Shown: positions 2,129 through 47,392 of the stretch, in pieces
How the letters are laid out: the number at the start of each line of letters is the position of its first letter
Position numbering within the stretch: position 1 is the stretch's first letter
Virus record (IMG/VR): IMGVR_UViG_3300017565_000008
Location: 1-49,846 of that record
Length of the DNA stretch: 49,846 nt
Origin: a virus
Lineage: Duplodnaviria > Caudoviricetes
Strand: one strand, 5' to 3'
Position numbers and translations under genes: made by a program
The notes under the pieces: generated by a model
Seen by the model: the letters and a program-made list of their open reading frames with translations, nothing else
The model's database searches: none
Told to the model about the DNA's origin: nothing

Positions 2129-2148
2129 CAAAATTTTTAGTATATTTG

Positions 2149-2257
2149 TGTAGTGTTACAGCATCTCACAATTAGTAACGAATATAAAAGATATTGCCCT
2201 GTTAATTGATGTTGAGGTGAGATGCAACGGATATTAATAGGGTTTTTTAGTTATACA
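2149..2257 (+). ncRNA. Structured leader 1 (kissing-loop hairpin pair plus U-tract) upstream of HEG1
   Basis: After TATATTTG (2141..2148): hairpin GTTAC/GTAAC with loop containing CATCTCAC (2162..2169); hairpin 2196..2243 with loop containing GTGAGATG (2217..2224); T-run; ATG at 2258. Confidence 0.7.
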
Positions 2258-3244
2258 ATGTCAAGAAGATTAACGACTCAAGAATTTATAGAAAAATCAA
2301 AGTGCGTTCACGGAGATAAATACAACTATGATAAGGTTATATATGTAATGTCTAATAAAAAAGTAATTATACATTGCTACAAACATGGTGATTTTGAACA
2401 AACACCTAATAGTCATTTATGCGGCAGAGGGTGTAATGAGTGCGCTAAAGAAATAACATCAACAAAATTGTCTGGAAATAATTGTTTATTTATTGAAAAA
2501 GCAAAATTAAAACACGGAAATAAATACGATTATAAATTAGTGTGTTATAAAAACAATAGGACAAAAGTGAAAATAATCTGTCCTATACACGATGTATTTG
2601 AGCAAACACCCGCGCATCATTTAAATGGGGGTTGCGAAAAATGTGGTAGAAGTATTATTAACTTTAAAAACAAGAAAAGCATTAGTGATGTTATAAAAGA
2701 TTTTAAAAAAATACATGGTGACAGATACGATTACTCACTTGTTGATTATAAAAAATGGAATTTAAATATAAAAATAAAATGCAATATTCATGGAGTTTTT
2801 GAGCAAACTCCGAATAAACATTTAAATGGTAATGGGTGTTATAAATGTGGCAGAGATAGTATATCTATTAAAAACCGTATTAACTCCACAACTTGGGGGT
2901 TCTCTAAATGGTGCGATGCGGCATTTAAAAGTAAGGTATTCGACTCTTTCAAAGTTTACATAATAAAATGTTGGAACGAAACAGAAACATTCTACAAGAT
3001 AGGAAGGACTTATAGATTAACTAAATATAGGTTTAATAGTAAAAGAGACTTACCATATAACTATGAGGTTGTAAAAGAATTAGTATTTGACAAACGAGCA
3101 GAAATGATTGATAATGCTATAGATTGCTTTTATAAAGAAATAGACTTAAAGAGAATAAATAAAGAATTAAAATATACACCGATGTTGTTTTTTAAGGGTA
3201 TGAACGAATGTTTTTCAGAGATAAATTTTGATATATTAAATTAA
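2258..3244 (+). CDS. HEG1: homing endonuclease with three DUF723/CapR-like Zn-ribbon repeats and a C-terminal GIY-YIG-like (T5orf172-like) domain
   Basis: Repeats HGDKYDY..V.Y......V.I.C..HG.FEQTP..HL.G.GC..C; C-terminal VYIIKCWN..E.FYKIGRT. Start moved to MSRRLTTQEF. Confidence 0.8.
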   Translation: MSRRLTTQEFIEKSKCVHGDKYNYDKVIYVMSNKKVIIHCYKHGDFEQTPNSHLCGRGCNECAKEITSTKLSGNNCLFIEKAKLKHGNKYDYKLVCYKNNRTKVKIICPIHDVFEQTPAHHLNGGCEKCGRSIINFKNKKSISDVIKDFKKIHGDRYDYSLVDYKKWNLNIKIKCNIHGVFEQTPNKHLNGNGCYKCGRDSISIKNRINSTTWGFSKWCDAAFKSKVFDSFKVYIIKCWNETETFYKIGRTYRLTKYRFNSKRDLPYNYEVVKELVFDKRAEMIDNAIDCFYKEIDLKRINKELKYTPMLFFKGMNECFSEINFDILN

Positions 3245-3279
3245 GTGTCTATATTTACAGAAATTAAAACACATATACA

Positions 3280-3819
3280 ATGGAAGAAGCTAAAAAAGTT
3301 TACACTGAGTCGACACCAAGATTGATTGAGTTGCATAAGAGTTATGTCGGAAGAAAGAATGTTGTGAAAAACTATGTAGATATTGAATATTTTGACAACG
3401 TAAACAGTAGTGATGAAACAGGGTATTTCTGGGCAAGTCATTTACGCGAGTTCACTTATAACCATATTGGCGGCTACACCAAACTATCCGAACAAGAATT
3501 TATTGAGTTTATGGGGTTGGAAGATTGTCAATTGGTTTCTAATAATGCTAAAAAAGAAACATCCGGCAAGCTGTCATACGAAATAGATTGGACATTTATT
3601 AAACATATGGCGGAAAGAATGGATTCAAATAAAGGTAAATACGAACCTTATAATTGGGTTAAGCCCATGAGTAACCCAAAAGATTTATTAAACGCAATTA
3701 CAAGGCATTTAGTAGCATTGCACGAGGGTGTTATGGAAGATGATGGAAGACCATATGGGCATATTGAAGCAATAGCTTGCGACGCAATGATGTATTTCAG
3801 GCAGATTGTTAATAAATAA
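3280..3819 (+). CDS. Protein with C-terminal dATP/dGTP diphosphohydrolase-like (DUF5664) domain
   Basis: KYEPYNWVKP...LLNAITRHL...D.G..H....AC pattern. Confidence 0.65.
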   Translation: MEEAKKVYTESTPRLIELHKSYVGRKNVVKNYVDIEYFDNVNSSDETGYFWASHLREFTYNHIGGYTKLSEQEFIEFMGLEDCQLVSNNAKKETSGKLSYEIDWTFIKHMAERMDSNKGKYEPYNWVKPMSNPKDLLNAITRHLVALHEGVMEDDGRPYGHIEAIACDAMMYFRQIVNK

Positions 3820-3834
3820 TTTTTCGTATATTTG

Positions 3835-3925
3835 TATAACGCAGTCACGGGCGTATGTAAGATATTTTAATAATAGAGTTGGTTAGTAGGGAACCGTGAC
3901 CCCGAACGCCTACTCTATTTTTTTT
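3835..3925 (+). ncRNA. Structured leader 2 (kissing-loop hairpin pair plus U-tract) upstream of HNH gene
   Basis: After TATATTTG (3827..3834): hairpin ACGC/GCGT with loop AGTCACGG; hairpin AATAGAGT...ACTCTATT (3872..3919) with apical loop AACCGTGAC; T-run; ATG at 3926. Confidence 0.7.
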
Positions 3926-4531
3926 ATGGAAAATTATTTTAATAGAAGTTTTAACTATTTGTCGCTTGTAGAAAAGACAACAAAAAGTAAGTCTATTTAC
4001 AATTGTGGAGTTTGTGGTTTTAACAAGGAAATACACGATTACAAGGTTTTAAGCGGTCATGATAAAACTTGCGGATGTAGAAATGGGGCTAACAATAATA
4101 TAGTTTTAGATATTTCTACTGATGGTAAAATAAGGACACAAACTGGTTTAATATTAAACTCAAACATGGCTAACGGATATGAAGGAATTTCGGTTGGTGA
4201 AATAAAGGACTATGTACACAGGGTTGTCGCATCAAAATTCATCCCTAATCCCAATAATTATACAGATGTAAATCATATAGACGGAAATAAAAAAAACAAT
4301 AATGTTAATAATTTAGAATGGTGTGATAGAAGTTACAATTTAAATCATGCTATATCTACAGGATTGAAGGTTTATAAAAAGGGATTAAAAAATAAACAAA
4401 GAAGGTTTTCAGATGTGGAAATAGATTATATAAGAAACTCTAATAAAGGGTCAACGACAATTGGTAGAGAATTAGGTGTGTCTAAAACTACAATTCAAAA
4501 TATTAGGAGAGGGTTAATTTACAAGGTATAA
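3926..4531 (+). CDS. HNH homing endonuclease (HNH_3-like with C-terminal HTH)
   Basis: YVHRVVASKFIPNP...VNHIDGNKKNNNVNNLEWC...N..HA; C-terminal GRELGVSKTTIQNIRRG. Confidence 0.88.
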   Translation: MENYFNRSFNYLSLVEKTTKSKSIYNCGVCGFNKEIHDYKVLSGHDKTCGCRNGANNNIVLDISTDGKIRTQTGLILNSNMANGYEGISVGEIKDYVHRVVASKFIPNPNNYTDVNHIDGNKKNNNVNNLEWCDRSYNLNHAISTGLKVYKKGLKNKQRRFSDVEIDYIRNSNKGSTTIGRELGVSKTTIQNIRRGLIYKV

Positions 4532-4610
4532 ACACAAGAACGGTTTAGAGGATTTAAAGAAAGCGGAATTTTATTTAAAGAAATTGATTGAGGGATATGG
4601 AAAAGATTAA
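4518..4610 (+). pseudogene. C-terminal remnant of a DUF3310 (SaV-like) gene
   Basis: Frame reads FTRYKHKNGLEDLKKAEFYLKKLIEGYGKD*, has no start codon and is preceded by an in-frame TAA at 4515. Confidence 0.65.
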
Positions 4611-4761
4611 ACAACTTTGCGGAAGTAATATGGTTTATTGCAAAATGCTTAAATTGTATAACAACTTTGAAATGCCAATAGGCGCAAGACACAGATTGGT
4701 TGTTGAAGATAAAAATGAACAAGAAAAGTTTTTAAAGTTTTTACTTGCAGAACTGAAATAG
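4597..4761 (+). CDS. Hypothetical protein (54 aa, not in ORF track)
   Basis: MEKIKQLCGSNMVY...FLLAELK*; fills the gap between neighbouring genes. Confidence 0.5.
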   Translation: MEKIKQLCGSNMVYCKMLKLYNNFEMPIGARHRLVVEDKNEQEKFLKFLLAELK

Positions 4762-4779
4762 AAGTGTTACTTTTGCTAC

Positions 4780-5130
4780 ATGAAAAAGAAAATAGAATTA
4801 ACAAAAGAACAGGCAGAGGGATTGTACTATAACATAAATAGTTACTTTCTTGCATTGCGTGTGGCCGAGATGATTGATAAGACAATGTTCGGTCGTTTAA
4901 AGTTCGGCACACCAACAATGAATAACCATCTTAGAAAAGCACGCGAAAGCATTCAGGCTCTTCTAGTTGAGTTCAATAAAGTATTTAGAGCTAAAGACAC
5001 TGACATGGTAGAATACGACGCACCTGCGGCTTTATTTGAGGTATTGGAGTATTTCTCACGGATGCCACCAGAACAGATTGAAGAAACTTTAAAAAATATA
5101 AAAGATTATGAATTACCAAGAAAAAGTTAG
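4780..5130 (+). CDS. Hypothetical protein
   Basis: 116 aa ORF; TACTTTTG ends 4 nt before the ATG. Confidence 0.7.
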   Translation: MKKKIELTKEQAEGLYYNINSYFLALRVAEMIDKTMFGRLKFGTPTMNNHLRKARESIQALLVEFNKVFRAKDTDMVEYDAPAALFEVLEYFSRMPPEQIEETLKNIKDYELPRKS

Positions 5131-5713
5131 AGAATTTCAAATCGCATCGGGACAACCTGTAAGCGATACACCACGGGAGTTAACAAAAGAAGAATACGAC
5201 TTCCGTGATAATTTGTTACGTGAAGAAATACGAGAATTGCAATACGCTATTGTTGACAATAACCGTGTTGAGATATTGGACGCTTTGTGTGATATTAAAT
5301 ACGTAAATGACGGGACAGCTAATCAAATGGGTCGAGAAAACGAGGAGGTCGAGGATATTTTTTGGCATAACAAAATTTTCACTAAGACTGTAAATAAATT
5401 AGTTGAATCTTTAATTGACATCAAGTGCGATGAGGTTGAAACTATAAACGCATTAGTTGGTATTATTGCATCAAGTATAGGCCTCACACTAGAAAACTTC
5501 AAAACAGCTTTAGATCGTGTCCATGATTCAAATATGTCTAAGTTCTGCTACGATATTAAGACAGCTCAAAGTACTAGGGATTTCTATTCTAGGCAAGGTA
5601 TTGACACGTATATCGAACCACGAGAAAAGAAGTTTGTAGTTTATCGTTCAGGTGATGGAAAGGTCCTCAAAAGTACTGACTTCTACCCTCCATACTTAGA
5701 AGATTTAGTTTAA
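5108..5713 (+). CDS. MazG/HisE-like nucleoside triphosphate pyrophosphohydrolase
   Basis: LLREEIREL...EILDALCDIKYV...RVHDSNMSK...DGKVLKS. Confidence 0.85.
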   Translation: MNYQEKVREFQIASGQPVSDTPRELTKEEYDFRDNLLREEIRELQYAIVDNNRVEILDALCDIKYVNDGTANQMGRENEEVEDIFWHNKIFTKTVNKLVESLIDIKCDEVETINALVGIIASSIGLTLENFKTALDRVHDSNMSKFCYDIKTAQSTRDFYSRQGIDTYIEPREKKFVVYRSGDGKVLKSTDFYPPYLEDLV

Positions 5714-5719
5714 AACAAG

Positions 5720-5744
5720 AGCGAGAAAAAAAATCTCGCTTTTT
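5720..5744 (+). terminator. Intrinsic terminator
   Basis: AGCGAGA/TCTCGCT hairpin followed by a T-run. Confidence 0.65.
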
Positions 5745-5781
5745 ATTTTGAATTATGAAAAGGATTTACTAATTTAGCGTT

Positions 5782-6102
5782 ATGAAAAAAGAAACAATAT
5801 TTAGAAAGGTGCTTGTCGAGGATAGGTTACCCGAATTTTGCCAAACAAAAATATTCATAGACAAATTAGGAGCAAGCGCTCAATTTTCTATTGACAGTGT
5901 AGATGTAGCATATTGCAGAGTAAATAGAGAATTTGTTACAGTCGAAGTAATAAAAAACGATTATGAATACTGGCTCGAAGAAATCCAGTTGCCTAGTGAG
6001 GAGGATATACAGAAACAGATGGACAGCCGTAATAATTTTTTAATGTTAGGATTTATTAAAGGCGCAAACTACATCCTCGGATTTATTAACAATAAGAAAT
6101 AG
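5782..6102 (+). CDS. Hypothetical protein
   Basis: 106 aa; VEDRLPE motif common in small phage proteins. Confidence 0.65.
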   Translation: MKKETIFRKVLVEDRLPEFCQTKIFIDKLGASAQFSIDSVDVAYCRVNREFVTVEVIKNDYEYWLEEIQLPSEEDIQKQMDSRNNFLMLGFIKGANYILGFINNKK

Positions 6103-6106
6103 AGAA

Positions 6107-6307
6107 ATGGATAAAACAGAAATAGGGCTTCAAGTGGCAAACGCTATTTTCCGTCAATTACAATTAGATAACAACCACAGGATAGTTGCGTGGATTTATA
6201 ACGTAAAAGGCTATCCAAATATGTTCAGGATAGCTTTTACTGATGGAACAGATGCAGTTGCAACTCTTGGAGCGTGTTTAGAATCTGTAATAGAAATATC
6301 TTATTAA
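6107..6307 (+). CDS. Hypothetical protein
   Basis: 66 aa ORF in a tightly packed operon. Confidence 0.6.
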   Translation: MDKTEIGLQVANAIFRQLQLDNNHRIVAWIYNVKGYPNMFRIAFTDGTDAVATLGACLESVIEISY

Positions 6308-6328
6308 ACAAAACCAAATAAAAACACT

Positions 6329-6598
6329 ATGACACAGGAATTTAAAGGGTCAACACCACCATGGTACATAGACAACGATACAAATCAATTGGTTATAACC
6401 AACAGCGATGAAACAAAAGCGGTTGCGTTTATTCCCAAACGAAGCGATAACGCAAAAGCGGATTCAGTTTTGATCAAGCACGCTCCCGAAATGTTGGAGA
6501 TGTTGAAGTATCTGTATGAATTAACAGAGTATTTTGATGAATGGGGCGAGGAAAGAGAAAAAATAAGTGAACTAATCACTAAAGCAACTACGATATGA
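6329..6598 (+). CDS. Hypothetical phage protein
   Basis: TPPW...A.LI..APEMLEML motif of a widespread small phage family. Confidence 0.7.
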   Translation: MTQEFKGSTPPWYIDNDTNQLVITNSDETKAVAFIPKRSDNAKADSVLIKHAPEMLEMLKYLYELTEYFDEWGEEREKISELITKATTI

Positions 6599-6984
6599 TA
6601 AAGGAATTTAGAAATACAGGAAAACAACGAGCGGAGGAATACAGCAAGTTTGCTGGAACGTTCAAATCTGGAATAGATTACTTCACAGGGTACACACGTG
6701 CCTTAGAAGATGTACAAGAGGAAATCGATCAATCAGAAACTTACCAAAAAGGATTTGTAGCCCTCCAAGAAGCTGTATTGAAGTCAGCAGAAAAAAACAA
6801 AGAGTTGGTGGAGATGTTGGGGCGATGCAAAAAGTCATTGGATTGGATTTATGAGAAGTGTCCTGCTCCTGTTTTAGATACGCAAGAAGAAGTGGAAAAC
6901 ATGACAGAATATGTTTTTTACCGTAGACAAGAAATTAAGACACTATTACATTCTTTAAAGAAAGGAAAAACTGATGCAGTCTAA
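6595..6984 (+). CDS. Hypothetical protein
   Basis: 129 aa; ATGA overlap with the upstream gene. Confidence 0.65.
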   Translation: MIKEFRNTGKQRAEEYSKFAGTFKSGIDYFTGYTRALEDVQEEIDQSETYQKGFVALQEAVLKSAEKNKELVEMLGRCKKSLDWIYEKCPAPVLDTQEEVENMTEYVFYRRQEIKTLLHSLKKGKTDAV

Positions 6985-7240
6985 AATAAATGAAAAAGCA
7001 ATCGAGCTTGTTAATAAGTTCATGCAACCAATTGACCAATTAGGAAGCTATCCAATGTGTTACGAAACAGCAAAGCAATGCGCTTTAATACATGTTGATG
7101 GTATTATCGAACAATGGGAGTATATCGACACCTATTTAGCAGATGCTCAAGGCGAGCTTAACCCTAACCTTCGATACTGGCAGGATGTTAAACAAGAAGT
7201 CATCGGATCGATCCACACCACCCACGATAAAGGAAAGTAA
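6974..7240 (+). CDS. Hypothetical phage protein
   Basis: AKQCALI.VD.I...YWQDVKQE motif. Confidence 0.7.
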   Translation: MQSKINEKAIELVNKFMQPIDQLGSYPMCYETAKQCALIHVDGIIEQWEYIDTYLADAQGELNPNLRYWQDVKQEVIGSIHTTHDKGK

Positions 7241-7378
7241 TGGCATTTATCATAAAAATCGTTTTTTCAATTATTGTTTTTTGTTGGGTTTATTTGTTGA
7301 TAATGTTCGTCTACGATTCAATGTCAAATAAATACAATTAAATTTGCTATTAACACATTTAGTTACTATCTTTGATTT

Positions 7379-7609
7379 ATGATAGATAGAGAAAGAGCAT
7401 TAGTGGCGAGTAAGGATTCGTACGAGTTACTAAAAAACTGGGAAGAGCCTATTTTCAAAACAACACAAGAATGGTTGGAATCAGGCGAAATAAGATATCC
7501 ATATTTAATATGGGATGAAGACCAATGGACAGGTTCTGTTTCGTTGAATAGATTAGAGTTTAGGTCTAATGGAGAGCCTTATATAAAAAGTATGGTTATT
7601 TTTGAGTAA
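7379..7609 (+). CDS. Hypothetical protein
   Basis: 76 aa; TATCTTTG ends 4 nt before the ATG. Confidence 0.65.
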   Translation: MIDRERALVASKDSYELLKNWEEPIFKTTQEWLESGEIRYPYLIWDEDQWTGSVSLNRLEFRSNGEPYIKSMVIFE

Positions 7610-7618
7610 ATTTATTTT

Positions 7619-8596
7619 ATGTCAAAAGTTATAACAACAGAATATTTTATTAAAAAAGCTAAATCTATTCACGGAGATAAATACAACTATGATAAGGTTA
7701 TATATGTAATGTCTAATAAAAAAGTAATTATACATTGCTACAAACATGGTGATTTTGAACAAACACCTGGAAATCATTGTCATAAAAGAAATCCACAAGG
7801 CTGCCCACAATGCGGTATAGATAGAAAGAGTGATTTTTTCAGTTTCAATACTGATGAATTTATTAAAAAATCTAAAGAAAAACACGGTGATAGATACGAC
7901 TATTCTCTTGTTGATTATAAAAACTCAAGAGAAAAAGTAAAGATTATTTGTGGAGAACACGGTGTTTTTGAGCAAAGAGCCGTTAATCACTTAGGTGGTT
8001 TTGGATGCGTTAAATGCGCTAACGATAAAGTATCTTCTATAAAATCTTATGATACAAAAGACTTTATAGAAAAAGCAATAAAAACACATGGTTATAAGTA
8101 TGATTACACTTTAGTAAAGTACGTTAATTCTCAAAACAAGGTTAAAATAATTTGTCCAATTCATGGTGTCTTTGAACAGAAAGCAAACAACCATTTGAAT
8201 AATAGGGGATGTTATAAATGTTCTAGAGATGTTGTTTCAAGGCGTCACAAAGAAAAACCACAGGGGTGGAATATTACTAGTTGGCAGAAAAAAGCCGAAC
8301 AAGCTAAAAATTTCGATAGTTTCAAAGTTTATATAATTAAATGTTGGAATGAAAATGAAGAATTTTATAAGATTGGAAGAACTTATAATACAATAAAACG
8401 AAGATTTACAGGTAAATACAATATGCCATATAATTATGAAGTTTTAAAAGAAATCATATTCCACAACGCGAAGGATTGTTTTGACAAAGAGAATGAGTTA
8501 AAGTTGTTACATAAAAATTTTAAGAAGATACCATCAATAAAATTCAACGGTATGAACGAATGTTTTTCAGAGATAAATTTTGATATATTAAATTAA
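7619..8596 (+). CDS. HEG2: Zn-ribbon-repeat plus GIY-YIG-like homing endonuclease (paralogue of HEG1)
   Basis: Same repeats and FDSFKVYIIKCWN..E.FYKIGRT domain. Confidence 0.8.
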   Translation: MSKVITTEYFIKKAKSIHGDKYNYDKVIYVMSNKKVIIHCYKHGDFEQTPGNHCHKRNPQGCPQCGIDRKSDFFSFNTDEFIKKSKEKHGDRYDYSLVDYKNSREKVKIICGEHGVFEQRAVNHLGGFGCVKCANDKVSSIKSYDTKDFIEKAIKTHGYKYDYTLVKYVNSQNKVKIICPIHGVFEQKANNHLNNRGCYKCSRDVVSRRHKEKPQGWNITSWQKKAEQAKNFDSFKVYIIKCWNENEEFYKIGRTYNTIKRRFTGKYNMPYNYEVLKEIIFHNAKDCFDKENELKLLHKNFKKIPSIKFNGMNECFSEINFDILN

Positions 8597-8633
8597 GTGT
8601 CTATATTTACAGAAATTAAAACACAATAGAATT

Positions 8634-9491
8634 ATGTTAAAGAAAGAAGAAGTATTTGTACGTGTTAGTAGCGAGAAGAAAGCACGGAAGTTGGCGAAGT
8701 TGTTGGAGATGTTTGGGGAGGGTGTTTATAAACCAACACTAAAAAGATTAAAAAATGGTGTTGTAAGCGATGAATATCCGATTGTTCATTATAATTGGGA
8801 GTGGAACGGTATAGGAAGCTCTCCTATAGACAAAACCAAAGTATCAATAAAAGAACTACGAAACATTTTGGCGGTTGAGCATTTAAAATCTGGCGATGTT
8901 GTGGTGTTGAATAATGGTGAAATTGTAAAAATAAAACACATTGGTGATGTATGGTTTGAAGAATTAAACGGACTTTTTCATGCATCAGATTTCATCCGTT
9001 ACGCAAACGAAGAAGAAAAAGCGTTGTTAGAGCCTGTTAGTTTAACGGAGAAAGACTATAAAGACAATACTTGGTACAAATCAAATAGAACTGGGAATTT
9101 GTTTTTCTTAGACAAGATTTCATCTTATCATTATGGTTTTAATTCATGTTGTTATAGTGATGATATTAGATGGTTCGAGTGTTTTAAAGAGAATGGTTTT
9201 GATATCGCAACAAACTGGACCGAAGCAACACCCCAAGAAGTAGAAGAAGCTTTGATTAAGGAGGTAAAGAGGAGGTATAAGGTTGGGGATTTACTGCGTG
9301 ATGAAGATGGAGATACCAAACGTTTCGGATTGTTTACACTTCGTTATAGACATGAATTCAACACATTATTTCAAGCTGGAATAAACATCTTCAAAGACGG
9401 CAAATGGGCAGAAGTAATCAAACCCGGAAAATCACTAGAAGAACGTGTTAAGGAGTTAGAACAAAAGGTTGAACAATTAGAAAATAGGTAA
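8634..9491 (+). CDS. Hypothetical mosaic phage protein
   Basis: 285 aa ORF with related segments RYANEEEK and TEATPQEVEE. Confidence 0.7.
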   Translation: MLKKEEVFVRVSSEKKARKLAKLLEMFGEGVYKPTLKRLKNGVVSDEYPIVHYNWEWNGIGSSPIDKTKVSIKELRNILAVEHLKSGDVVVLNNGEIVKIKHIGDVWFEELNGLFHASDFIRYANEEEKALLEPVSLTEKDYKDNTWYKSNRTGNLFFLDKISSYHYGFNSCCYSDDIRWFECFKENGFDIATNWTEATPQEVEEALIKEVKRRYKVGDLLRDEDGDTKRFGLFTLRYRHEFNTLFQAGINIFKDGKWAEVIKPGKSLEERVKELEQKVEQLENR

Positions 9492-9500
9492 ACAGGAAAA

Positions 9501-9528
9501 GGCTAGTTTAACGACTAGCTTTTTTTTT
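9501..9528 (+). terminator. Intrinsic terminator
   Basis: GGCTAGT/ACTAGCT hairpin plus T-run, directly followed by the portal promoter. Confidence 0.75.
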
Positions 9529-9543
9529 GTATCTTTGTTTATT

Positions 9544-10896
9544 ATGTTTGGATTCAACAATAAAGCTAAAAAGCAAGAGCAACTAAAGCGTGATATGGAA
9601 ATGTTGGCTAACGTCAACTTGTTTCAATGGCTTGGTGCAGACCTACCTATTATAAATGACGATGCTAACCAGTACATAAATCGCATTTGGCGCAATGTAG
9701 GAGTGGTTTACACCGCTACATCATTGATATATGAAAAAGTGTTGCAATGCCCTGTTGTGTTCTATAAAGTCAAGGACAAGAAGGCCAACAGGAAACTAAA
9801 AGCATTCAAAGGAAGTGACGTAAACACTGACGCTTATCGTATATTAAAGGCTCGTGCGTTAGAAGAGATTGAACCTATACAAGCATTACAGGACTTGTTA
9901 AAACAACCTAATCCGCAACAACGATGGTCTGACTTTTTAGGTGTGTTCTGCCTTAGCTACCTGCTTACGGGAAACTCATACGTTTACAAGCAACTAAGCA
10001 AAACTACAAAGCGACCTATTGAATTGTGGGCAATGCCTGAATTGCATATTGAATCTGGCGGTACATATAATCCTGTAAAGTCTTATTATCAGTTTTGGCA
10101 GACCGAGAACGAGAAGCAATATCCTGCTGATACGATATACCACGCTAGGACACCTAATCCGAACTTTACTACAACAGGGAGTCAATTATACGGTGTTAGT
10201 CCTTTGCGTGCGTTCCTAGAGCCTTTGAGGTCTATTGAGGAATCATACAAACAGGCATCAAAGCAATTAAAGTCTGGTGGTGTTCTTGCTATGCTTAGTC
10301 CGGCGCGCGCCGAAGATGCTTTTAACGCTGACCAACGCAATGCGTTTATGGCTAAGTTCAAAGAAGCTTTACGATCGCAATCGCCAAACTCTAGGTACTT
10401 AACAAGCTCTATTGCTATGGACGTTCAACAGGTTGGTTTACCTAGTGGTGACTTGGATTTACTTAATATCCGCAGTGCAGACGAGCAGTCTATTTACAAG
10501 GCTTATAAGATACCATTGCAGTTCTATAACCAGGATAGTTCTAGCTATAATAATCAGAGTATTGCGAACATCCAATTCATAACAAACGCTGTTGCGCCAC
10601 TTGCAAAGGTTTGTAGCGATATGTTGACAGACTTTGTTGGGGTGCATTTTGACGATGTTATTATTGAGCTTGATATTAATTCATTGCCTGAATTATCTGC
10701 AAATATTAAAGAGCAAATAGAGTGGATTGATAAGGCGGTTGAAAGTGGTATTATAAGCAGAAACGAAGGCAGATACCAGATTGGATACGGAGAAATAGAG
10801 GGTGCTGAATACATGAGTGGATTCTTGTATCGTGGTAGGTCTTTAGAAAAACTGTATGACGGAAGCATACAAATTAATGATAATAAACAAAACTAA
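9544..10896 (+). CDS. Portal protein (HK97 family)
   Basis: LLKQPNP.Q, LLTGNSY and LYGVSPL motifs; about 450 aa; TATCTTTG at 9530..9537. Confidence 0.92.
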   Translation: MFGFNNKAKKQEQLKRDMEMLANVNLFQWLGADLPIINDDANQYINRIWRNVGVVYTATSLIYEKVLQCPVVFYKVKDKKANRKLKAFKGSDVNTDAYRILKARALEEIEPIQALQDLLKQPNPQQRWSDFLGVFCLSYLLTGNSYVYKQLSKTTKRPIELWAMPELHIESGGTYNPVKSYYQFWQTENEKQYPADTIYHARTPNPNFTTTGSQLYGVSPLRAFLEPLRSIEESYKQASKQLKSGGVLAMLSPARAEDAFNADQRNAFMAKFKEALRSQSPNSRYLTSSIAMDVQQVGLPSGDLDLLNIRSADEQSIYKAYKIPLQFYNQDSSSYNNQSIANIQFITNAVAPLAKVCSDMLTDFVGVHFDDVIIELDINSLPELSANIKEQIEWIDKAVESGIISRNEGRYQIGYGEIEGAEYMSGFLYRGRSLEKLYDGSIQINDNKQN

Positions 10897-11824
10897 AACA
10901 TTCTTGACTGCCATTAAATTTTATTGATGGCAGTTTTTTTGATTTCCTGTTGATTCTTTTTAATTCAGTTTCTTTGTTAAAAGCATCTTTAGCGTTTCCA
11001 AACACAATTTCTTCTACTACCTCATAATTATAAGGCATAATTGACTTTGCTCTAAATCTATGTTTTGTAGTTGTAAACATTCTTCCAATTTTATAGAATT
11101 CCTCATTGTCATTCCAACAACGGATAATATACACTTTAAAAGAATCAAAATGTCTACTGCTTTTAGCTTTTTCTTCCCAATTTGTTATATTCCATCCTGT
11201 TGGGTTTTTAGACATTTTTTCAGATATTTTTTTGTTACCACATAAACTACATCCCTTACCTTGTATATGGTTACTAGGTGTGCATTCAAAATCACCGTGT
11301 TCTTTACAATTTATAGTTACTTTTATTGTTGAATTTACATAAACAACTTTATCATAGTTATATCTATTGCCATGTTTTATCATTGCTCTTTTAATAAATT
11401 GAGTTATTGTTAACGATGTTTTTTTATTCGCCAATATTTTACCGCACATTGGACACCCATTACCAAGAAGGTGGCTATTTGCTTCTTGCTCGAACATCGT
11501 ATGAATTGGGCATATTATTTTAACTTTATAATGGTTACCCTTGTATTCAACTAAAGAATAATCGTACTTATTACCATGCTTTTTTATAGACTTATTAATA
11601 AATTCTTGTGTATTTGATTTAGCATTACCAGTACACTTATGGCATTTTTGAACAAATAAATGCGCACTAGCTCTTTGGTAGAACGTTCCATGGTTGTTGT
11701 TTTTACAAATTATACCAACCTTAGTATTGGTATTTACATATTCAACTAACGAGTAGTCGTATTTATCTCCATGAACTTGCTTTGCTTGATTAATAAATTC
11801 CTCAGTTGTTTTTCTTCTTGCCAT
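10874..11824 (-). CDS. HEG3: Zn-ribbon-repeat plus GIY-YIG-like homing endonuclease
   Basis: Same family as HEG1/2; start MARRKTTEEF; overlaps the portal 3' end tail to tail. Confidence 0.8.
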   Translation of the reverse strand: MARRKTTEEFINQAKQVHGDKYDYSLVEYVNTNTKVGIICKNNNHGTFYQRASAHLFVQKCHKCTGNAKSNTQEFINKSIKKHGNKYDYSLVEYKGNHYKVKIICPIHTMFEQEANSHLLGNGCPMCGKILANKKTSLTITQFIKRAMIKHGNRYNYDKVVYVNSTIKVTINCKEHGDFECTPSNHIQGKGCSLCGNKKISEKMSKNPTGWNITNWEEKAKSSRHFDSFKVYIIRCWNDNEEFYKIGRMFTTTKHRFRAKSIMPYNYEVVEEIVFGNAKDAFNKETELKRINRKSKKLPSIKFNGSQECFSFVYYH

Positions 11825-11919
11825 TATAAAATAAAAAAGCCTATCGAATAATAAGGCTACCACACACTTATTACCCGTAGGCTAATTAATATTTTTCTCG
11901 TTGGTGGTAGTCAACAATA
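11825..11919 (-). ncRNA. Structured leader 3 (kissing-loop hairpin pair plus U-tract) upstream of HEG3
   Basis: On the minus strand after TATATTTG (11927..11920): hairpin TTGTTG/CAACGA with loop ACTACCAC; long hairpin 11883..11838 with loop TGTGTGGTAGC; T-run; ATG. Confidence 0.72.
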
Positions 11920-11938
11920 CAAATATACAAAATTTTAT

Positions 11939-12592
11939 TTAAATATAAGGTATATATGCACTGCTATTGTATGTTTTATAAAAATGACTTCTTCCTTCTT
12001 TTAGTAGTTTAGATTTTTCAATATTGGAAAAACTCCTTTTATGTGTTTTTGGGTCTTGATCCATACAATAGAAAAGACCATCACTAAAAATATCTATAAA
12101 CCTTTCTGGCGTTAAACCTGCATTATATATTCTCCTGGTGAACTCAACGTGTTCGTATGCGGAAAAGAATGTTGTATCAAAACCTCCAACCGTTTCAAAT
12201 ACTTTTCTATTGTAATACATTGCGCATCCATTAACTAAATTGAATACACGGTAGTTTTCTTTATTTTTTATTGGTTTATAAAAAGTGTAACAAGCGTGAT
12301 TTAATCCGCTTTCTATGTATCTACTAAATGCATCTTTGTGAATTGGCATAGTATCGTCATCTAAAAGGAATAAATGTTCAGCGTTAGTTTCCATGAACAA
12401 TGAGATACACTTATTCTTAGCACGTGGTATTCCTGCCCTTTCTTCAAACCTATAATCGCTTTTGCAATACTCAATATCGCTTGCATCATCGACTATGATA
12501 ATGTCACGTTCCGGCACATACTTAGTGACCTCGATTAAAACACGTTCTAATTCGTTTGGTCTGTTTCTTGTTGTGATTGCGACTTTAAACAT
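11939..12592 (-). CDS. Glycosyltransferase family 2
   Basis: VAITTRNR, IVDDAS, GIPRAKN and FLLDDD (DxD) motifs. Confidence 0.88.
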   Translation of the reverse strand: MFKVAITTRNRPNELERVLIEVTKYVPERDIIIVDDASDIEYCKSDYRFEERAGIPRAKNKCISLFMETNAEHLFLLDDDTMPIHKDAFSRYIESGLNHACYTFYKPIKNKENYRVFNLVNGCAMYYNRKVFETVGGFDTTFFSAYEHVEFTRRIYNAGLTPERFIDIFSDGLFYCMDQDPKTHKRSFSNIEKSKLLKEGRSHFYKTYNSSAYIPYI

Positions 12593-13239
12593 AATGAGTT
12601 AATTTTAATACTTTCAATTCGTTCTTTTTCGGGTACGCTACCTTTTATAGCGTGGTTGTAGTCGTATGAGTAAAACTCTTTTATAGCGTTTGGAATGTCA
12701 ATAAAAGGATATGGATTCAAACCGGCTTTGTGTATTCTTTCACTAAAAACCCGATGCTCTAACCCCCATCTACCAGGCATTTCAGGATATGTAACTCCAC
12801 TGTCTAACACAAGCTTGTCACAATACAATAATAAACCGCATGGTGCGTTATAAACCCAGTGATAACGGTGTTGTTCAATTACATAAACTTCGTTGCTTAT
12901 ACGGCGTCCTGTGATGTCCTTTTCGTATGATAAGCACATGTGACTAAAATCTGAATTTATATACTTGTATAGTATGTTTCCGTTTAGAGGATATACGTCA
13001 TCATCAGCAAGAAAAATGTGACTATAACCCATTTCACGAGCGTATTCTAAGCATTGGTTCTTTGCTCGAGATATACCTAATGGCGTTTGGTTACGAATCG
13101 TTGCTCCATCAAATGGTGTATCACTACCGTCATCAACAATCATTATAGAAAAGTCAGTATAGTACATTTCCCAATGCTTAATACAGTTTCTAGCTGTATC
13201 ATGCCTATTATGCACTGTTATTGCTATTAGTGGCTTCAT
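12547..13239 (-). CDS. Glycosyltransferase family 2
   Basis: IAITVHNR, IVDDGS, GISRAKN and FLADDD motifs. Confidence 0.88.
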   Translation of the reverse strand: MKPLIAITVHNRHDTARNCIKHWEMYYTDFSIMIVDDGSDTPFDGATIRNQTPLGISRAKNQCLEYAREMGYSHIFLADDDVYPLNGNILYKYINSDFSHMCLSYEKDITGRRISNEVYVIEQHRYHWVYNAPCGLLLYCDKLVLDSGVTYPEMPGRWGLEHRVFSERIHKAGLNPYPFIDIPNAIKEFYSYDYNHAIKGSVPEKERIESIKINSLCLKSQSQQETDQTN

Positions 13240-14549
13240 TTTGTTTTCTTTAGATATGCTTGATAGTTCGGATTGTCGTGAAATAGGTTGTCTTTATAGT
13301 GATTGTTGTAAATAGTGCATTGCCCCCAGGTTACGTCGTCTTTGTCTATTTCTTTATCTTGCTTGAATGTAATACTACCTAAGTGAGTTACTAAAGCACT
13401 AGTCACTAACATTGGTTTTACCCCTACTTTCTCGCATTCTTTTATTGTAGCATTATCGCTGAACCAATAAGAAACAATGTTTGGTAGACCTCCTATCTTA
13501 GTCCATAAATCCCTAGTCATCATAAAGCACCAACCCGAAAAGTAACGACCGCATTTAGTGCCTATTTCGTTAGTTTTTATATCTGTTTGACGTGGGTCTT
13601 TAGGGCATTTAGGACTAACGAGAGGATAATTGGCCGACAACAATTCGTGAAGCCATCCATGGTGAAAAAGTAAGTCATTGTTGCAGAACAAAATGTGTTT
13701 AGCTTTACCTTGTTTTGCGCCTAAGTTCATGTTGTCATTATAATTGAATGATTCTGTATGATGATAAACAGTCTGCGCATTGTTATACTGAACGTGTGGC
13801 ATCTGCTCAATGACTATTACATTAACAGGCAATTGATTAGCACCAGATATACAAGTGTCAATAGTTTTTTGCGTCATAGCCTTTAAACTAGAGTTGCTGG
13901 CTTTAGAGAGGATAACAACGTCAACGATAGCAGGTTGTTGTCTGCGTTTTCTAATGTGTTCCGGCAAGTTTTGAAATTGTGTTTCTGTCACGTTGTCGTT
14001 GTATTTGTAGTAATATAATACCTCTTTAATTTGATGCTCTGTTTTTAAGTGAGGTAACAGTAATTTAGCGTAGGCTTGATCTTCTGCGTACTTCAATGAC
14101 GGGAAAGATGATTTTAAAGATAACTCACGCTTAACGCAACTAATATGGTTTGGTATTCTGTAGTACCTATTATGAGTATTGTAATCTCGTTTGTTGTGTA
14201 TAGAATAGTCGCATATCTTACCAACACCGCCGTTTATAGTCACATTAGCATAAAATGTAATAACATCAGTGTCATGTTCTATTGCATCTAAAAGCTTTGA
14301 TATAAACTTAGGGTGTATTTCATCGTCATCGTCGACAAACTGTATATACTCGCCCTGAGCCATTTCTACCATAAGGTTACGCTTATCACCAAGCATAATA
14401 GATTTATTGTCGCTAAGTACTAAAACCTCAACTTGTTCTTTTTGTAGATAGTCAAGCTCTTCAATCTGTCTGTAAATTTCGTCCTGTATTTTAGGTAGAA
14501 AATTATTTCGCCTAGTATGTACACTAGGAACTAATATTGATAGTTTCAT
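13236..14549 (-). CDS. Two-domain glycosyltransferase (GT2-GT2)
   Basis: N domain LSILVPS...GEYIQFVDDDD...YAED; C domain VDVVILS...ILFCNNDL...WFSDN. Confidence 0.85.
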   Translation of the reverse strand: MKLSILVPSVHTRRNNFLPKIQDEIYRQIEELDYLQKEQVEVLVLSDNKSIMLGDKRNLMVEMAQGEYIQFVDDDDEIHPKFISKLLDAIEHDTDVITFYANVTINGGVGKICDYSIHNKRDYNTHNRYYRIPNHISCVKRELSLKSSFPSLKYAEDQAYAKLLLPHLKTEHQIKEVLYYYKYNDNVTETQFQNLPEHIRKRRQQPAIVDVVILSKASNSSLKAMTQKTIDTCISGANQLPVNVIVIEQMPHVQYNNAQTVYHHTESFNYNDNMNLGAKQGKAKHILFCNNDLLFHHGWLHELLSANYPLVSPKCPKDPRQTDIKTNEIGTKCGRYFSGWCFMMTRDLWTKIGGLPNIVSYWFSDNATIKECEKVGVKPMLVTSALVTHLGSITFKQDKEIDKDDVTWGQCTIYNNHYKDNLFHDNPNYQAYLKKTK

Positions 14550-15606: not shown

Positions 15607-15852
15607 AGGTAATCGGGGTAAGTTACGGTAAGTTACCTTTAAATTACCTTTTTTCGACTTTTTTCAACCCTATAAACCATTAATAATCAATATAATATAT
15701 ATATTATTTAAAGTATATATATATAAAGGTAATCTGGTAATCTAAGAAAATAGGGAAAAGTATATATTTTTATAAAAAGTTTTTTATGAAAAATTTAATA
15801 GTATTATTTATAAAGTCGAAAAGTATCAAAATACCAAATTACCGATTACCTT
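15607..15852. repeat. Origin-like element B with GGTAA/TTACC iterons; homologue of 46707..46952
   Basis: GGTAA x3, TTACC x2, (TA)n core, GGTAATCTGGTAA, A-rich spacer, TTACCGATTACC. Confidence 0.7.
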
Positions 15853-15899
15853 TTGTGGTAAAAACACATTAAAAATATTATTTGTATATTTGTATCATT

Positions 15900-19107: not shown

Positions 19108-19371
19108 TTATCGTTTTGTTTTTTCAATGAATTTGGTTATTACAGCTTTTCTACAATATTGTGATTCGTATATATGTCCAGTGTCTTCGTGAAACATAAC
19201 TGTATCACCAACAACATGTGGTATATCTATATATACTTTGTTGTATGTTTGCTTTAATATTTCAACTCTTTTTCCATCTAGTGCAACCGCTTCGTACTTA
19301 TATTCGGTTATTTCATCTACAATACAGCTACTTAATTGTAGACATGACAATATTAATAGTATCTTTCTCAT
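19108..19371 (-). CDS. Putative lipoprotein
   Basis: MRKILLILSCLQLSSC signal and lipobox; own promoter. Confidence 0.6.
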   Translation of the reverse strand: MRKILLILSCLQLSSCIVDEITEYKYEAVALDGKRVEILKQTYNKVYIDIPHVVGDTVMFHEDTGHIYESQYCRKAVITKFIEKTKR

Positions 19372-19429
19372 ACCTATAAGTTACAAACCCAAAACGACAA
19401 TTGCAAATAAAATCGTATATTTGTATATT

Positions 19430-25596: not shown

Positions 25597-26552
25597 TCTC
25601 TTATATCTATTTTATAGAAGCATTCTTGCATACCATTGAATGATAGCCGAGGTATATATTTAAGTTCTTTGTTATTTCGTTTTAACTCCCATTCTTTATT
25701 ATAGCAATCCCTTGCATTATCAAAAACTATTTCTTTGACTACTTCATAGTTGTATGGCATATTATATTTGCCTAAGAATCTTTTTTTAATAGAATTGAAA
25801 GTCCTTCCTATTTTATAGAAATTTTCATTATCATTCCAACACTTAATAACATACACCTTAAATGAATCGAATCTATTACTTTCACGTGCTTTGCGCTCCC
25901 AATTAGTAACTGACCAACCTGTTGGGTTTTCTTTTAATGCTTTATTAGTCCTATTTCTTCCACAATCAGGACATCCATTGTTATTTAAATGGTTTATAGG
26001 TGATTGTTTAAACTCTCCGTGTTCTTTACAGATTATTTTTACCTTAGTTTTAGAATCTTTGTATTCAACTAATGAATAGTCATATCTATCACCGTGAACT
26101 TGTTTGCACTCTTGTAAAAACAAATCAACACATTTTGTTTTTGATAAAGAAAGTTTTATTCGCGAACATTTAACGCATTCTTGACCAATTAAATGTTTTC
26201 TTGGACTAATATAGAATTTATTATGAATTTTACAAATTATAGCAACCTTTGTGTGCGCATTTGTGTATTTTGTAATACTATAATCATATGTATTTCCGTG
26301 AATTAATTTAGCATCTTTTATGAATTGTTCGGTTGTTTTTCTAGACATATTAGACGAAGATTCAAAACCGCAAAAACTACATCCTTTACCCTTGAAATGA
26401 TTACATGGTGTCATGTCGAAAAAACCGTGTTCTTTGCATTTAATCTTTACTTTTTCTTTAGTACCATTATACTCAACCAAACTATAATCGTACCTTTTAC
26501 CATGTTTATCTTCGAACCGTTTTATTACATCTTCTTGTGTCAACTTTCTCAT
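25593..26552 (-). CDS. HEG4: Zn-ribbon-repeat plus GIY-YIG-like homing endonuclease
   Basis: Same family as HEG1-3; start MRKLTQEDV 4 nt after a TATATTAG box. Confidence 0.8.
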   Translation of the reverse strand: MRKLTQEDVIKRFEDKHGKRYDYSLVEYNGTKEKVKIKCKEHGFFDMTPCNHFKGKGCSFCGFESSSNMSRKTTEQFIKDAKLIHGNTYDYSITKYTNAHTKVAIICKIHNKFYISPRKHLIGQECVKCSRIKLSLSKTKCVDLFLQECKQVHGDRYDYSLVEYKDSKTKVKIICKEHGEFKQSPINHLNNNGCPDCGRNRTNKALKENPTGWSVTNWERKARESNRFDSFKVYVIKCWNDNENFYKIGRTFNSIKKRFLGKYNMPYNYEVVKEIVFDNARDCYNKEWELKRNNKELKYIPRLSFNGMQECFYKIDIRD

Positions 26553-26608
26553 ACCGCTAATATAATACATTAAATCCGTATATGCAAATTTTTTCGTATT
26601 TTTGTTGT

Positions 26609-29251: not shown

Positions 29252-29973
29252 TATAACCCCTCTTTTTTATTTGTATGAGAATATTCGCCAAATAATTCTT
29301 TTGCTTTTTTATCGTAAGCTTTTGCGGCTTCTATTTCGCAATCAAAACGACCCAAGTGAATTGTTTTTTTATTTACAAATATTTTTGACTGCCATTTATT
29401 CCTTGACTTATCCCATGTTACCCCTTTAAAAATAGATGATTTACCATTTTGCATAGATTGATTCATTCCATTATTTTGTCTATTGCATAATCTAAGATTT
29501 GACTTTCTATTATCTAATCTGTCATGATTTATGTGGTCAACTTCCAAGTTTTTCGGAGCATCCATTATTAATCTATGCATCCTTATTTTTTTATTCCCGT
29601 TTAATGCGTAACCATTTTCATTAATATACCAATTAATATCTTTTAATTTATCAAAATCCTCGTTATCAACCTTTGCGAATTTACCTTTTGTTAATGGTAT
29701 AAGTTTATAATATTCAGGTTGTTCAAAATCCCAGTTTCTTAAATTTATACTATTTATTGTGAATTTCATACCAGCATATATGGAACTACATTTAGGACAC
29801 TTTTGCTTTGAATACATATGTTTATTAGGCGTTTGCTCAAAAACACCATGGTTATAACACTTAATTTTAACTTTAACACTATTCCCTTTATATTCTACCA
29901 ATGAGTAATCATATGTATCTCCGTGAATGCCTTTAAACCTCTTAATAACTTCTTCTTGCGTTAACTTTCTCAT
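29248..29973 (-). CDS. HEG5: chimeric homing endonuclease (one Zn-ribbon repeat, HNH, AP2)
   Basis: MHRLIM...VDHINHDRLDNRKSNLR; AP2 SSIFKGVTW...HLGRF..E.EAAKAYD. Confidence 0.88.
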   Translation of the reverse strand: MRKLTQEEVIKRFKGIHGDTYDYSLVEYKGNSVKVKIKCYNHGVFEQTPNKHMYSKQKCPKCSSIYAGMKFTINSINLRNWDFEQPEYYKLIPLTKGKFAKVDNEDFDKLKDINWYINENGYALNGNKKIRMHRLIMDAPKNLEVDHINHDRLDNRKSNLRLCNRQNNGMNQSMQNGKSSIFKGVTWDKSRNKWQSKIFVNKKTIHLGRFDCEIEAAKAYDKKAKELFGEYSHTNKKEGLY

Positions 29974-30028
29974 ACCACAAACATAATCATTAAAATCCAT
30001 ATACGCAAATAAAATTGTATCTTTGTAT

Positions 30029-46706: not shown

Positions 46707-46952
46707 AGTAATCTAAGGTAATCTGAGGTAAGTTACCAACAAATTACCTTTTTTTGAACTTTTACAAACTCATAACTATCTAATAATAATATATATATAT
46801 AATTTATTTAATATATATATTTAATAAGGTAATCTAGTAACTTGTAAAAAGAGTAAAAAGTATAAATAAAAATAAAAATAAAAATTAGGAAAAAGTAAAG
46901 AGTATATTATATAAAGTCAAAAAACTATAAAATACTAGATTACCGATTACCT
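46707..46952. other. Putative replication origin (element A)
   Basis: Non-coding, directly after the primase-helicase; 10-bp-spaced (G)GTAA repeats, TTACC, (TA)n core, GGTAATCTAGTAA and TTACCGATTACC. Confidence 0.7.
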
Positions 46953-46966
46953 CTAAACAAAAAAAC

Positions 46967-47392
46967 ATGAAAAGAAAATCTGAATCCGCTCTGCAATCGC
47001 AATGCTACGTCTACTTCAACAACACGTACTGCCTTAAGAATCATAACCCGCGTTTGATATGGTTTCTAGTTCCAAATGAAATCGCATCGGTTGTAGGTGG
47101 TGTATTTCAAATCATGGGTGTTTCAAACAACATCATAACGAAAGCCGTTAGCATGATTGTTGATGGTATGAAACGGATAGGTTTCTTAGCAGGAGTTAGC
47201 GATAATATTATACTTGCGGATAATGGGCGTACATTCTTAGTGGAGTTCAAACTACCTGGAAACAACCAACAACCTAACCAAGTCGAGTTCCAACAACGAG
47301 CAGAGTCGTTAGGGCATACTTATGTTGTGATTAAAAGCATAGATCAGTTTAAAGAGTTTTGTACAAAAGAATTTAATAATGAAAGCAAATAG
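46967..47392 (+). CDS. VRR-NUC nuclease
   Basis: SESALQ, VPNE, G..AGVSD, VEFK and Q.EFQ. Confidence 0.85.
   Translation: MKRKSESALQSQCYVYFNNTYCLKNHNPRLIWFLVPNEIASVVGGVFQIMGVSNNIITKAVSMIVDGMKRIGFLAGVSDNIILADNGRTFLVEFKLPGNNQQPNQVEFQQRAESLGHTYVVIKSIDQFKEFCTKEFNNESK

Follow-up and report, generated by a model that had tools for sequence, protein, structure and literature searches.

Comparison with Described Systems

In the guanidine-IV riboswitch (mepA motif), a kiss between the loop of a first hairpin and that of an intrinsic terminator has been proposed to promote read-through (PMC11611296, PMC10907184). Here we describe a leader of similar shape, which was identified three times (L1, L2 and L3) in a phage genome of 49,846 nucleotides (IMG/VR record IMGVR_UViG_3300017565_000008, referred to at its full length as the window) and also in related phages. 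Like guanidine-IV, the element is a two-hairpin 5' leader in which the loop of the first hairpin is complementary to the loop of the terminator. However, guanidine-IV requires a ligand and has highly conserved nucleotides around the kiss, whereas here the kissing word is free and no conserved pocket was seen. Guanidine-IV also controls efflux genes, whereas the genes behind the present leader are nuclease, replication and antirepressor genes, with no guanidine exporter.

In phages P4 (seqA, CI and seqC) and P1 (C4) and in Gifsy-1 (IsrK), all from Proteobacteria, a processed antisense RNA acts in trans and has targets on both sides (PMC4825925, PMC3632133). The present element shares with them a phage leader with complementary short words, a predicted premature termination, a predicted short RNA from the same leader and, in some relatives, antirepressor or replication genes downstream. 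It differs from them in having one word pair, in the position of the partner word inside the terminator hairpin, and in that no downstream target copy was seen. RF01695 (C4) gave no match over its cut-off in five records, the best scoring 13.8 bits against a cut-off of 45 and lying elsewhere in the 150-kb phage G002. Similar loop words in C4-a1b1 (PMC2864571, supplement 5) were considered as a sign of homology, judged to be at chance level for 6-mers and not used. By analogy, the leader resembles guanidine-IV in shape and perhaps P4 CI, P1 C4 and IsrK in logic, and it belongs to neither group.

RNA structure limits the expression of free-standing nuclease genes in T4 (I-TevI, segB, mobE), as is predicted here, and promoters for downstream genes travel with those nucleases (PMC2988022). 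The structures described in the accessible text of that paper are single hairpins masking the Shine-Dalgarno sequence or terminators within the gene, with no loop-loop pairing described (PMC2988022). The pT181 type of plasmid attenuator differs from the present element, in which both words lie on one transcript, 7-9 nt match, and a strand bias favours sense RNA. The pT181-type antisense RNA is a transcript of the opposite strand and is fully complementary. In these attenuators, loop-loop recognition decides termination and the loop sequence sets the specificity (PMC3753616).

Fremin et al. 2023 catalogued unnamed viral candidates for structured RNAs that lie at most 25 bp from HNH/NUMOD4 and antirepressor genes, for example DNAVirus_1203 (96 nt, mostly aquatic) (PMC10690425). 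The main text of that paper makes no mention of a kissing loop, and members of the present family may already sit unnamed in its catalogue (PMC10690425). No Rfam 15 family was found with the whole window, with L1 alone or with 20 and 6 related loci, all of which gave weak chance matches far below the cut-off; the first-pass annotation of the window had likewise recognised no named family. The accessible main text of PMC5737381 mentions neither kissing nor Bacteroidetes, and a full-text literature search, with most subscription papers outside its reach, returned no description of this element. The best reading is that the leader would be a new variant of terminator attenuation, with a kiss that needs no ligand pocket and a word that varies freely.

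Structure of the Three Leaders

The leaders are about 100 bases long and have a common layout, consisting of a TATATTTG box, a small hairpin (HP1), an AU-rich linker and a long hairpin (HP2) with a U-tract. In L1 (plus strand), a putative promoter box of the Bacteroidota -7 type (TAnnTTTG; consensus from PMC10620806) at 2141..2148 is followed by HP1 at 2155..2179 with the word W at 2161-2169, the AU-rich linker at 2188..2195, and HP2, a predicted intrinsic terminator, at 2196..2248 (stem-loop 2196-2243, partner word W* 2217-2225, U-tract 2243-2248). In L2, also on the plus strand, the putative box is located at 3827..3834, HP1 at 3839..3854 (W 3844-3850) and HP2 at 3872..3925 (stem-loop 3872-3919, W* 3894-3900), and the U-tract at 3918-3925 abuts the ATG at 3926. 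L3 lies on the minus strand, with the putative box at 11920..11927, HP1 at 11900..11915 (W 11910-11904) and HP2 with its U-tract at 11833..11883 (stem-loop 11883-11838, W* 11863-11857). Boxes and linker were assigned from the sequence and the hairpins by folding.

HP2 stands between the promoter box and the first gene, with a folding energy of -15 to -21 kcal/mol plus the U-tract; HP1 by itself folds weakly, at -1.2 to -3.4 kcal/mol among the window leaders. The distance from the U-tract to the ATG is 0-9 nt, directly adjoining in L2 and within 8-9 nt in L1 and L3. Because of their long stems and loops, the window HP2s were overlooked by a simple terminator scan. Whole-leader folding z-scores were -1.45, -1.14 and -3.27 for L1, L2 and L3, respectively.

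The kissing match of L1 is 9 bp (GCATCTCAC/GTGAGATGC), and those of L2 and L3 are 7 bp each, whereas the six cross-matches between leaders are 4-6 bp. The cognate lengths were reached by 17, 239 and 180 of 5000 dinucleotide shuffles for L1, L2 and L3, respectively. The match within any single leader is modestly unlikely, and the proof rests on the relatives.

The first-pass annotation had placed three leaders of one layout at these positions, and all were found there; in each, the HP1 loop begins with A and the linker reads A(A/G)ATATT, as it had noted. Its observation that the two loops of each leader are perfectly complementary, with a different word every time, also held, although the complementary L1 word pair is 9 bp and thus one longer than it had given. 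It had further assigned the genes behind the leaders to two nuclease families, which agrees with our searches: HEG1 and HEG3, behind L1 and L3, are zinc-ribbon-repeat proteins (phrog_681), and the middle gene is an HNH endonuclease.

Complementarity and Covariation in Related Phages

Viral contigs were searched with the L1 word pair, and 61 loci of the same two-hairpin layout were obtained. A second scan was blind to the words, as it specified box, linker and stem base alone, and yielded at least 120 loci. This word-blind set contained 93 distinct leaders, 62 of which passed a structure-only terminator filter and formed 31 clusters at 80% identity. Among the matches listed, a cognate match of at least 7 bp was present in 28 of the 31 clusters compared with 58 of 930 swapped pairs, and one of at least 8 bp in 18 of 31 compared with 17 of 930. 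Nine of the 31 leaders dropped by the filter also reached 7 bp or more, mostly through AT-rich chance, with L162 and L177 apparently real.

In a hand-picked alignment of 27 leaders, 16 of them with the L1 word, the kiss helix was 97.7% paired and double changes were present at 6 of 8 kissing pairs. None of 500 shuffles reached the observed values, and the whole structure scored 84.7% compared with 36-48% for slid controls. One kissing pair was invariant in alignment A2, and the words were wholly different among clusters. A conserved RNA structure with covarying loop-loop pairing had been proposed in the first-pass annotation; the covariation among homologues on which it had made this proposal depend was found, both in these double changes and in the excess of cognate matches.

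HP2 statistics were calculated for 29 clusters, with L221 and L228 dropped as they have no loop word. G-U pairs made up 61 of 517 pairs, the sense-strand fold was more stable in 25 of the 29, and a tandem GA internal loop was present in 14 of 29 HP2s compared with 0 of 29 on the opposite strand. Because of the G-U pairs, the fold stability and the strand bias of the tandem GA, the functional molecule is the RNA of the sense strand. The 8 nt following the stem hold 5-8 T in all 29, and an open reading frame (ORF) begins within about 9-26 nt of the stem in 27 of 29 leaders, which is every one with sequence available.

Some leaders have the partner word in the apical loop and several families have it in a 3' bulge; HP1 is sometimes absent. 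L172, L189, L217, L237 and L248 have two small 5' hairpins and carry the partner word in a 3' bulge of the long terminator hairpin; this variant gave no match to the Rfam C4 model. The leader at G022 24861 (L435) has its words in swapped order relative to L339, and the same phage has two further leaders. The leader at G015 12098 (L476) is a relative of window L3 with one compensatory double word change (CTACTAC/GTAGTAG).

Leaders were also reached through the proteins. After duplicates and loci without an in-frame ATG were dropped, 80 HEG1 relatives gave 47 distinct loci and 67 HNH relatives gave 55. The box and terminator hairpin were present at 3 of the 47 and 2 of the 55, respectively, three of these five being copies of the window phage. 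The two non-self leaders obtained by this route both matched (L041 with 9 bp, L496 with 7 bp). Two leaders were identified in the Flavobacterium phage mumin9-1 (MN812224.1, L579), the nearest relative among the cultured phages examined, with boxes at 11666 and 12701, one before a NUMOD4 endonuclease (7 bp) and the other before a helicase-primase operon (8 bp); the second carries the same word as the leader at G033 4787. The descriptor gave no convincing leader in phi12:1 or in two stretches of crAss001. BLASTN of the leaders against cultured phages was tried and gave short chance matches only, those in phi12:1 and a Porphyromonas phage lying in coding sequence.

These results show that the element is a real and widespread structured RNA leader of Bacteroidota phages that is uncatalogued. 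Searches of host genomes, made with queries of low sensitivity, did not find it. A pattern scan of GTDB (11 of 64 parts) returned mostly chance matches, with 4-5 of 5 free word positions matching in 3 of 120; two of these three loci resemble true leaders, and both are on short contigs of metagenome-assembled genomes labelled as non-Bacteroidota. In Bacteroidota chromosomes, 17 matches were obtained in 14 of 401 genomes compared with 14 control matches, none with a 7-bp word. Model R2 found the leader in none of five Bacteroidota chromosomes, the best 150 candidates per genome being scored; this model is insensitive to divergent members, as it gave window L2 an E of 0.25 and missed 10 of 50 virus records.

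Genes Downstream of the Leader

Matching to PHROGs of 57 distinct genes behind leaders, some of them cut by locus ends, identified 13 nucleases, 10 replication proteins, 4 methylase or ParB-like proteins, 2 antirepressors, 1 terminase, 1 protein labelled phosphofructokinase and 2 unknown families, while 24 had no match. Antirepressor and replication genes are thus present among the relatives (2 and 10, respectively), and none is located behind a window leader. Within the window, 17 TATATTTG boxes were counted, and model R2 together with inspection found the leader structure behind three, all of which precede nucleases. No such leader was found at the other three of the six nuclease genes (7619, 26570 minus, 30045 minus), which the first-pass annotation had left unmentioned.

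The tie to homing endonucleases drawn in the first-pass annotation therefore holds for all three leaders of this genome and not for the family. Nuclease-specificity was rejected on the basis of the 13 of 57 downstream genes, the three of six window nucleases and the nuclease relatives (3 of 47 and 2 of 55, counting self copies). Because 13 of 57 downstream genes are nucleases and most nuclease relatives have no leader, the element is a phage leader of general use, not specific to nucleases, although these frequently carry it or insert downstream of it.

Proposed Mechanism

The layout, the exact complementarity and the compensatory change across phages are observed. From these we infer promoter activity, termination at the U-tract, a kiss made during transcription, and its direction, with kissing leading to read-through. 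The leader would then be a ligand-free transcription attenuator in which the kiss hinders the terminator, that is, an anti-termination device in cis, and we give this model about an even chance. The TATATTTG box would drive the leader transcript, and HP2 with its U-tract would terminate it. The 5' word W would pair with W* in the terminator loop during transcription, before the 3' arm emerges. This W:W* kiss would hinder terminator closure, and part of the polymerases would read into the gene. The outcome might be varied by the speed of the polymerase, by a protein, or by leader RNA acting in trans.

In nested folds of growing transcripts, the best fold contained W:W* in 29 of 29 leaders when W* had just emerged, in 22 of 29 five nt before the end of the stem and in 0 of 29 once the terminator is complete. 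The native HP2 had already formed 8 nt before its own end in 4 of 29 leaders with the cognate 5' part compared with 130 of 226 combinations with a foreign one. These folds, from models in which pseudoknots and the polymerase are outside, suggest a kinetic block. The variable geometry of the family is easier to reconcile with a word that competes against terminator folding than with a scaffold of fixed form. Pairing in cis that decides between read-through and termination had been proposed in the first-pass annotation; it is plausible, with backing from the nested folds and from guanidine-IV as a precedent (PMC11611296, PMC10907184).

Several points weigh against attenuation in cis. The nested fold of lower energy was that of the completed terminator in 29 of 29 leaders, and folding without pseudoknots does not distinguish a kiss that blocks the base stem from one that coexists with it. 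In the three window leaders, the 5' part showed no consistent pairing with the base arms of the terminator. An initial automatic alignment (MAFFT) of 22 leaders of greater diversity had its HP1 words out of register, so that RNAalifold detected no consensus pair in it, and the model built from that alignment was sequence-only. Finally, if the kiss formed every time, it would work as a fixed valve and not as a switch.

Alternative Explanations

It is possible, but rather unlikely, that the main purpose of the leader is feedback or immunity in trans, following the logic of P4 CI and P1 C4 with the word as a gene- or phage-specific address. The terminated leader RNA, or an HP2 piece cleaved at the AU-rich linker, would accumulate and capture the word on new transcripts; the cis kiss would then fail and the terminator would win. 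Nucleases, antirepressors and replication initiators, which are found downstream, are the gene types guarded by CI/IsrK systems (PMC4825925, PMC3632133). The three words of the window phage do not cross-pair, and the 3'-bulge variant (L172 family) is by eye like the target-plus-antisense layout of C4-a1b1. However, the full-length terminated RNA holds both words and could mask itself, and a second target copy like P4 seqC was not seen downstream in the three window leaders, where the ATG lies within 0-9 nt. Because neither an integrase nor a repressor was found among the 86 window ORFs scanned, lysogenic immunity is not indicated here.

Diversifying specificity of the word would imply action in trans, and word turnover gives mixed support for it. 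Near-identical hairpins with different words were present in close relatives: the word and the other positions had changed at 3 of 6 and 0 of 38 positions in L144/L166, at 3 of 8 and 1 of 38 in L142/L143, and at 3 of 7 and 1 of 61 in L217/L237, respectively, in a comparison conditioned on similarity of the rest of HP2. Spanning trees of family A gave 7 changes in 8 word columns compared with 10 in 41 others (p=0.013), while family B showed no excess, with 6 changes in 7 word columns compared with 42 in 60 others (p=0.39). Word changes in these two close families were double in 12 cases and single-sided in 3.

From 35 further virus records, whole or nearly whole, 13 leaders were hand-picked beyond the seeding ones. 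Cross-pairing was scored for 21 leaders of 10 records, with four known leaders missed by the descriptor left out. Matches of at least 7 bp were as common within a genome (4 of 34 ordered pairs) as between genomes (48 of 386, a figure raised by the seeded L1 word), and these counts do not support selection for distinct words inside a genome. One phage, G002, has five leaders (11103, 11853, 23902, 32564 and 124278), two of them before antirepressor-like genes, and two pairs of its leaders have common words. The element-specific code with trans feedback put forward in the first-pass annotation thus gains from the faster word turnover of one family, but not from the other family and not from orthogonality within genomes.

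It is unlikely that the kiss acts on the finished short RNA, where it would stabilise the terminator or protect a small RNA of about 100 nt with a job of its own, so that kissing would mean OFF or no gating. In its favour, a single drawing accommodates the two hairpins and the kiss, the nested fold that scores best is the completed terminator, and an RNA with the tandem GA motif and a perfect Watson-Crick kiss would be compact and stable. The free exchange of words and the variable geometry speak against a conserved scaffold or a fixed outside target, and the leaders point into an ORF about 9-26 nt from the stem (27 of 29).

Translational control, in which HP2 would lie over the ribosome footprint of read-through transcripts and the kiss would open or lock it, appears very unlikely. 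The ATG follows the U-tract directly in L2 and within 8-9 nt in L1 and L3, and in T4, hairpins that cover the ribosome site keep homing endonuclease expression low (PMC2988022). However, in all three window leaders the stem includes neither the start codon nor the AU-rich stretch that precedes it, the stem-to-ATG distance is 9-26 nt in relatives, and the U-tract is kept throughout.

Highly improbable, and already largely refuted by the covariation, is an incidental loop match in leaky terminators that insulate inserted genes or in a protein-bound DNA inverted repeat: each hairpin would also stop transcripts of the upstream gene, single matches are modestly unlikely and the GTDB and Bacteroidota chromosome scans are at chance level, but the 28 of 31 clusters compared with 58 of 930 swapped pairs and the double changes in 6 of 8 pairs speak against it, the G-U and tandem GA strand bias indicates RNA, and the sequence of a protein-binding site would not be free to change in this way.

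Genomic Context of the Window

The window is a complete 49.8-kb phage record with a 123-nt end repeat and siphovirus-type genes. Its primase-like protein is nearest to those of Flavobacterium, Cellulophaga and Nonlabens phages (top identity 43%), and TAnnTTTG boxes, which correspond to the Bacteroides -7 promoter consensus (PMC10620806), precede many of its genes; for both of these reasons we infer a Bacteroidota host. The TATATTTG boxes at 19416, 23039, 33212 and 36523 (minus) are merely 12-15 nt upstream of an ATG, and this spacing implies nearly leaderless mRNAs.

Four of the six nuclease genes encode zinc-ribbon-repeat endonucleases (2258, 7619, 11824 minus and 26570 minus), and the other two encode HNH (3926) and HNH-AP2 (30045 minus) proteins. 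HEG1 (328 aa; phrog_681, E 7e-44) is located at 2258..3244 on the plus strand, the HNH endonuclease (201 aa; Pfam HNH_3, phrog_59) at 3926..4531 on the plus strand, and HEG3 (316 aa; phrog_681, E 3e-56) at 10874..11824 on the minus strand. Just 3' of HEG1, a promoter-like box (3250..3257, plus strand; repeat D9, common to the 7619 nuclease) would drive the next gene independently of L1, and sequence inspection identified a further promoter-like box at 4768, upstream of the gene at 4780. HEG3 is the sole gene downstream of L3 and is convergent with the portal gene. Because of the boxes at 3250 and 4768 and the convergent portal gene, each window leader seems to serve little beyond its own nuclease.

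The C-terminal remnant of a DUF3310 gene (4518..4610, plus strand; PF11753, E 3.6e-5, 24.2 bits against a cut-off of 24) overlaps the stop of the HNH gene and, lying directly 3' of it, is a possible insertion scar of an HNH cassette. HEG1 and the 7619 nuclease have a 98% identical 83-nt 3' end (3191-3273 and 8543-8625), within which the promoter-like box located downstream lies, and a 5' block of 85% identity (2251-2417 and 7612-7778). These common blocks suggest recombination between nuclease copies and a cassette that would re-supply the downstream promoter.

A second, unrelated start module of 69 nt was found at 19360-19428, 26541-26609 and 29962-30030 (minus-strand starts). It is common to two antisense nucleases and an 87-aa orphan ORF, and every copy stands back to back with a plus-strand promoter box. 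Three adjoining glycosyltransferase genes (11939-14549, minus strand) end 12 nt before the L3 box. The AT-rich intergenic regions 15617-15866 and 46717-46967 are about 72% identical over about 250 nt, have TA-rich inverted arms, and are possibly origins or regulatory regions.

Significance

To our knowledge, little phage gene control has been described in Bacteroidota, a major gut and aquatic phylum. The two leaders in the cultured phage mumin9-1 make the questions of termination and of action in trans directly testable. If the kiss gates termination without a ligand, the leader would be a natural reprogrammable attenuator with a free code of 7-9 nt and an orthogonal part for Bacteroidota. If it is also active in trans, it would amount to P4/P1 RNA immunity in minimal form and would give selfish nucleases a new means of limiting the damage they do to themselves. 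Taken as a whole, we tentatively consider it possible, though short of probable, that an RNA-only lock-and-key circuit is widespread in Bacteroidota phages, in which one short transcript would be both switch and inhibitor: the word would kiss its own terminator and turn the gene on, accumulated leader RNA would shut cognate copies in trans, and the words would diversify like incompatibility groups and be borrowed by selfish nucleases to time and cap their expression.

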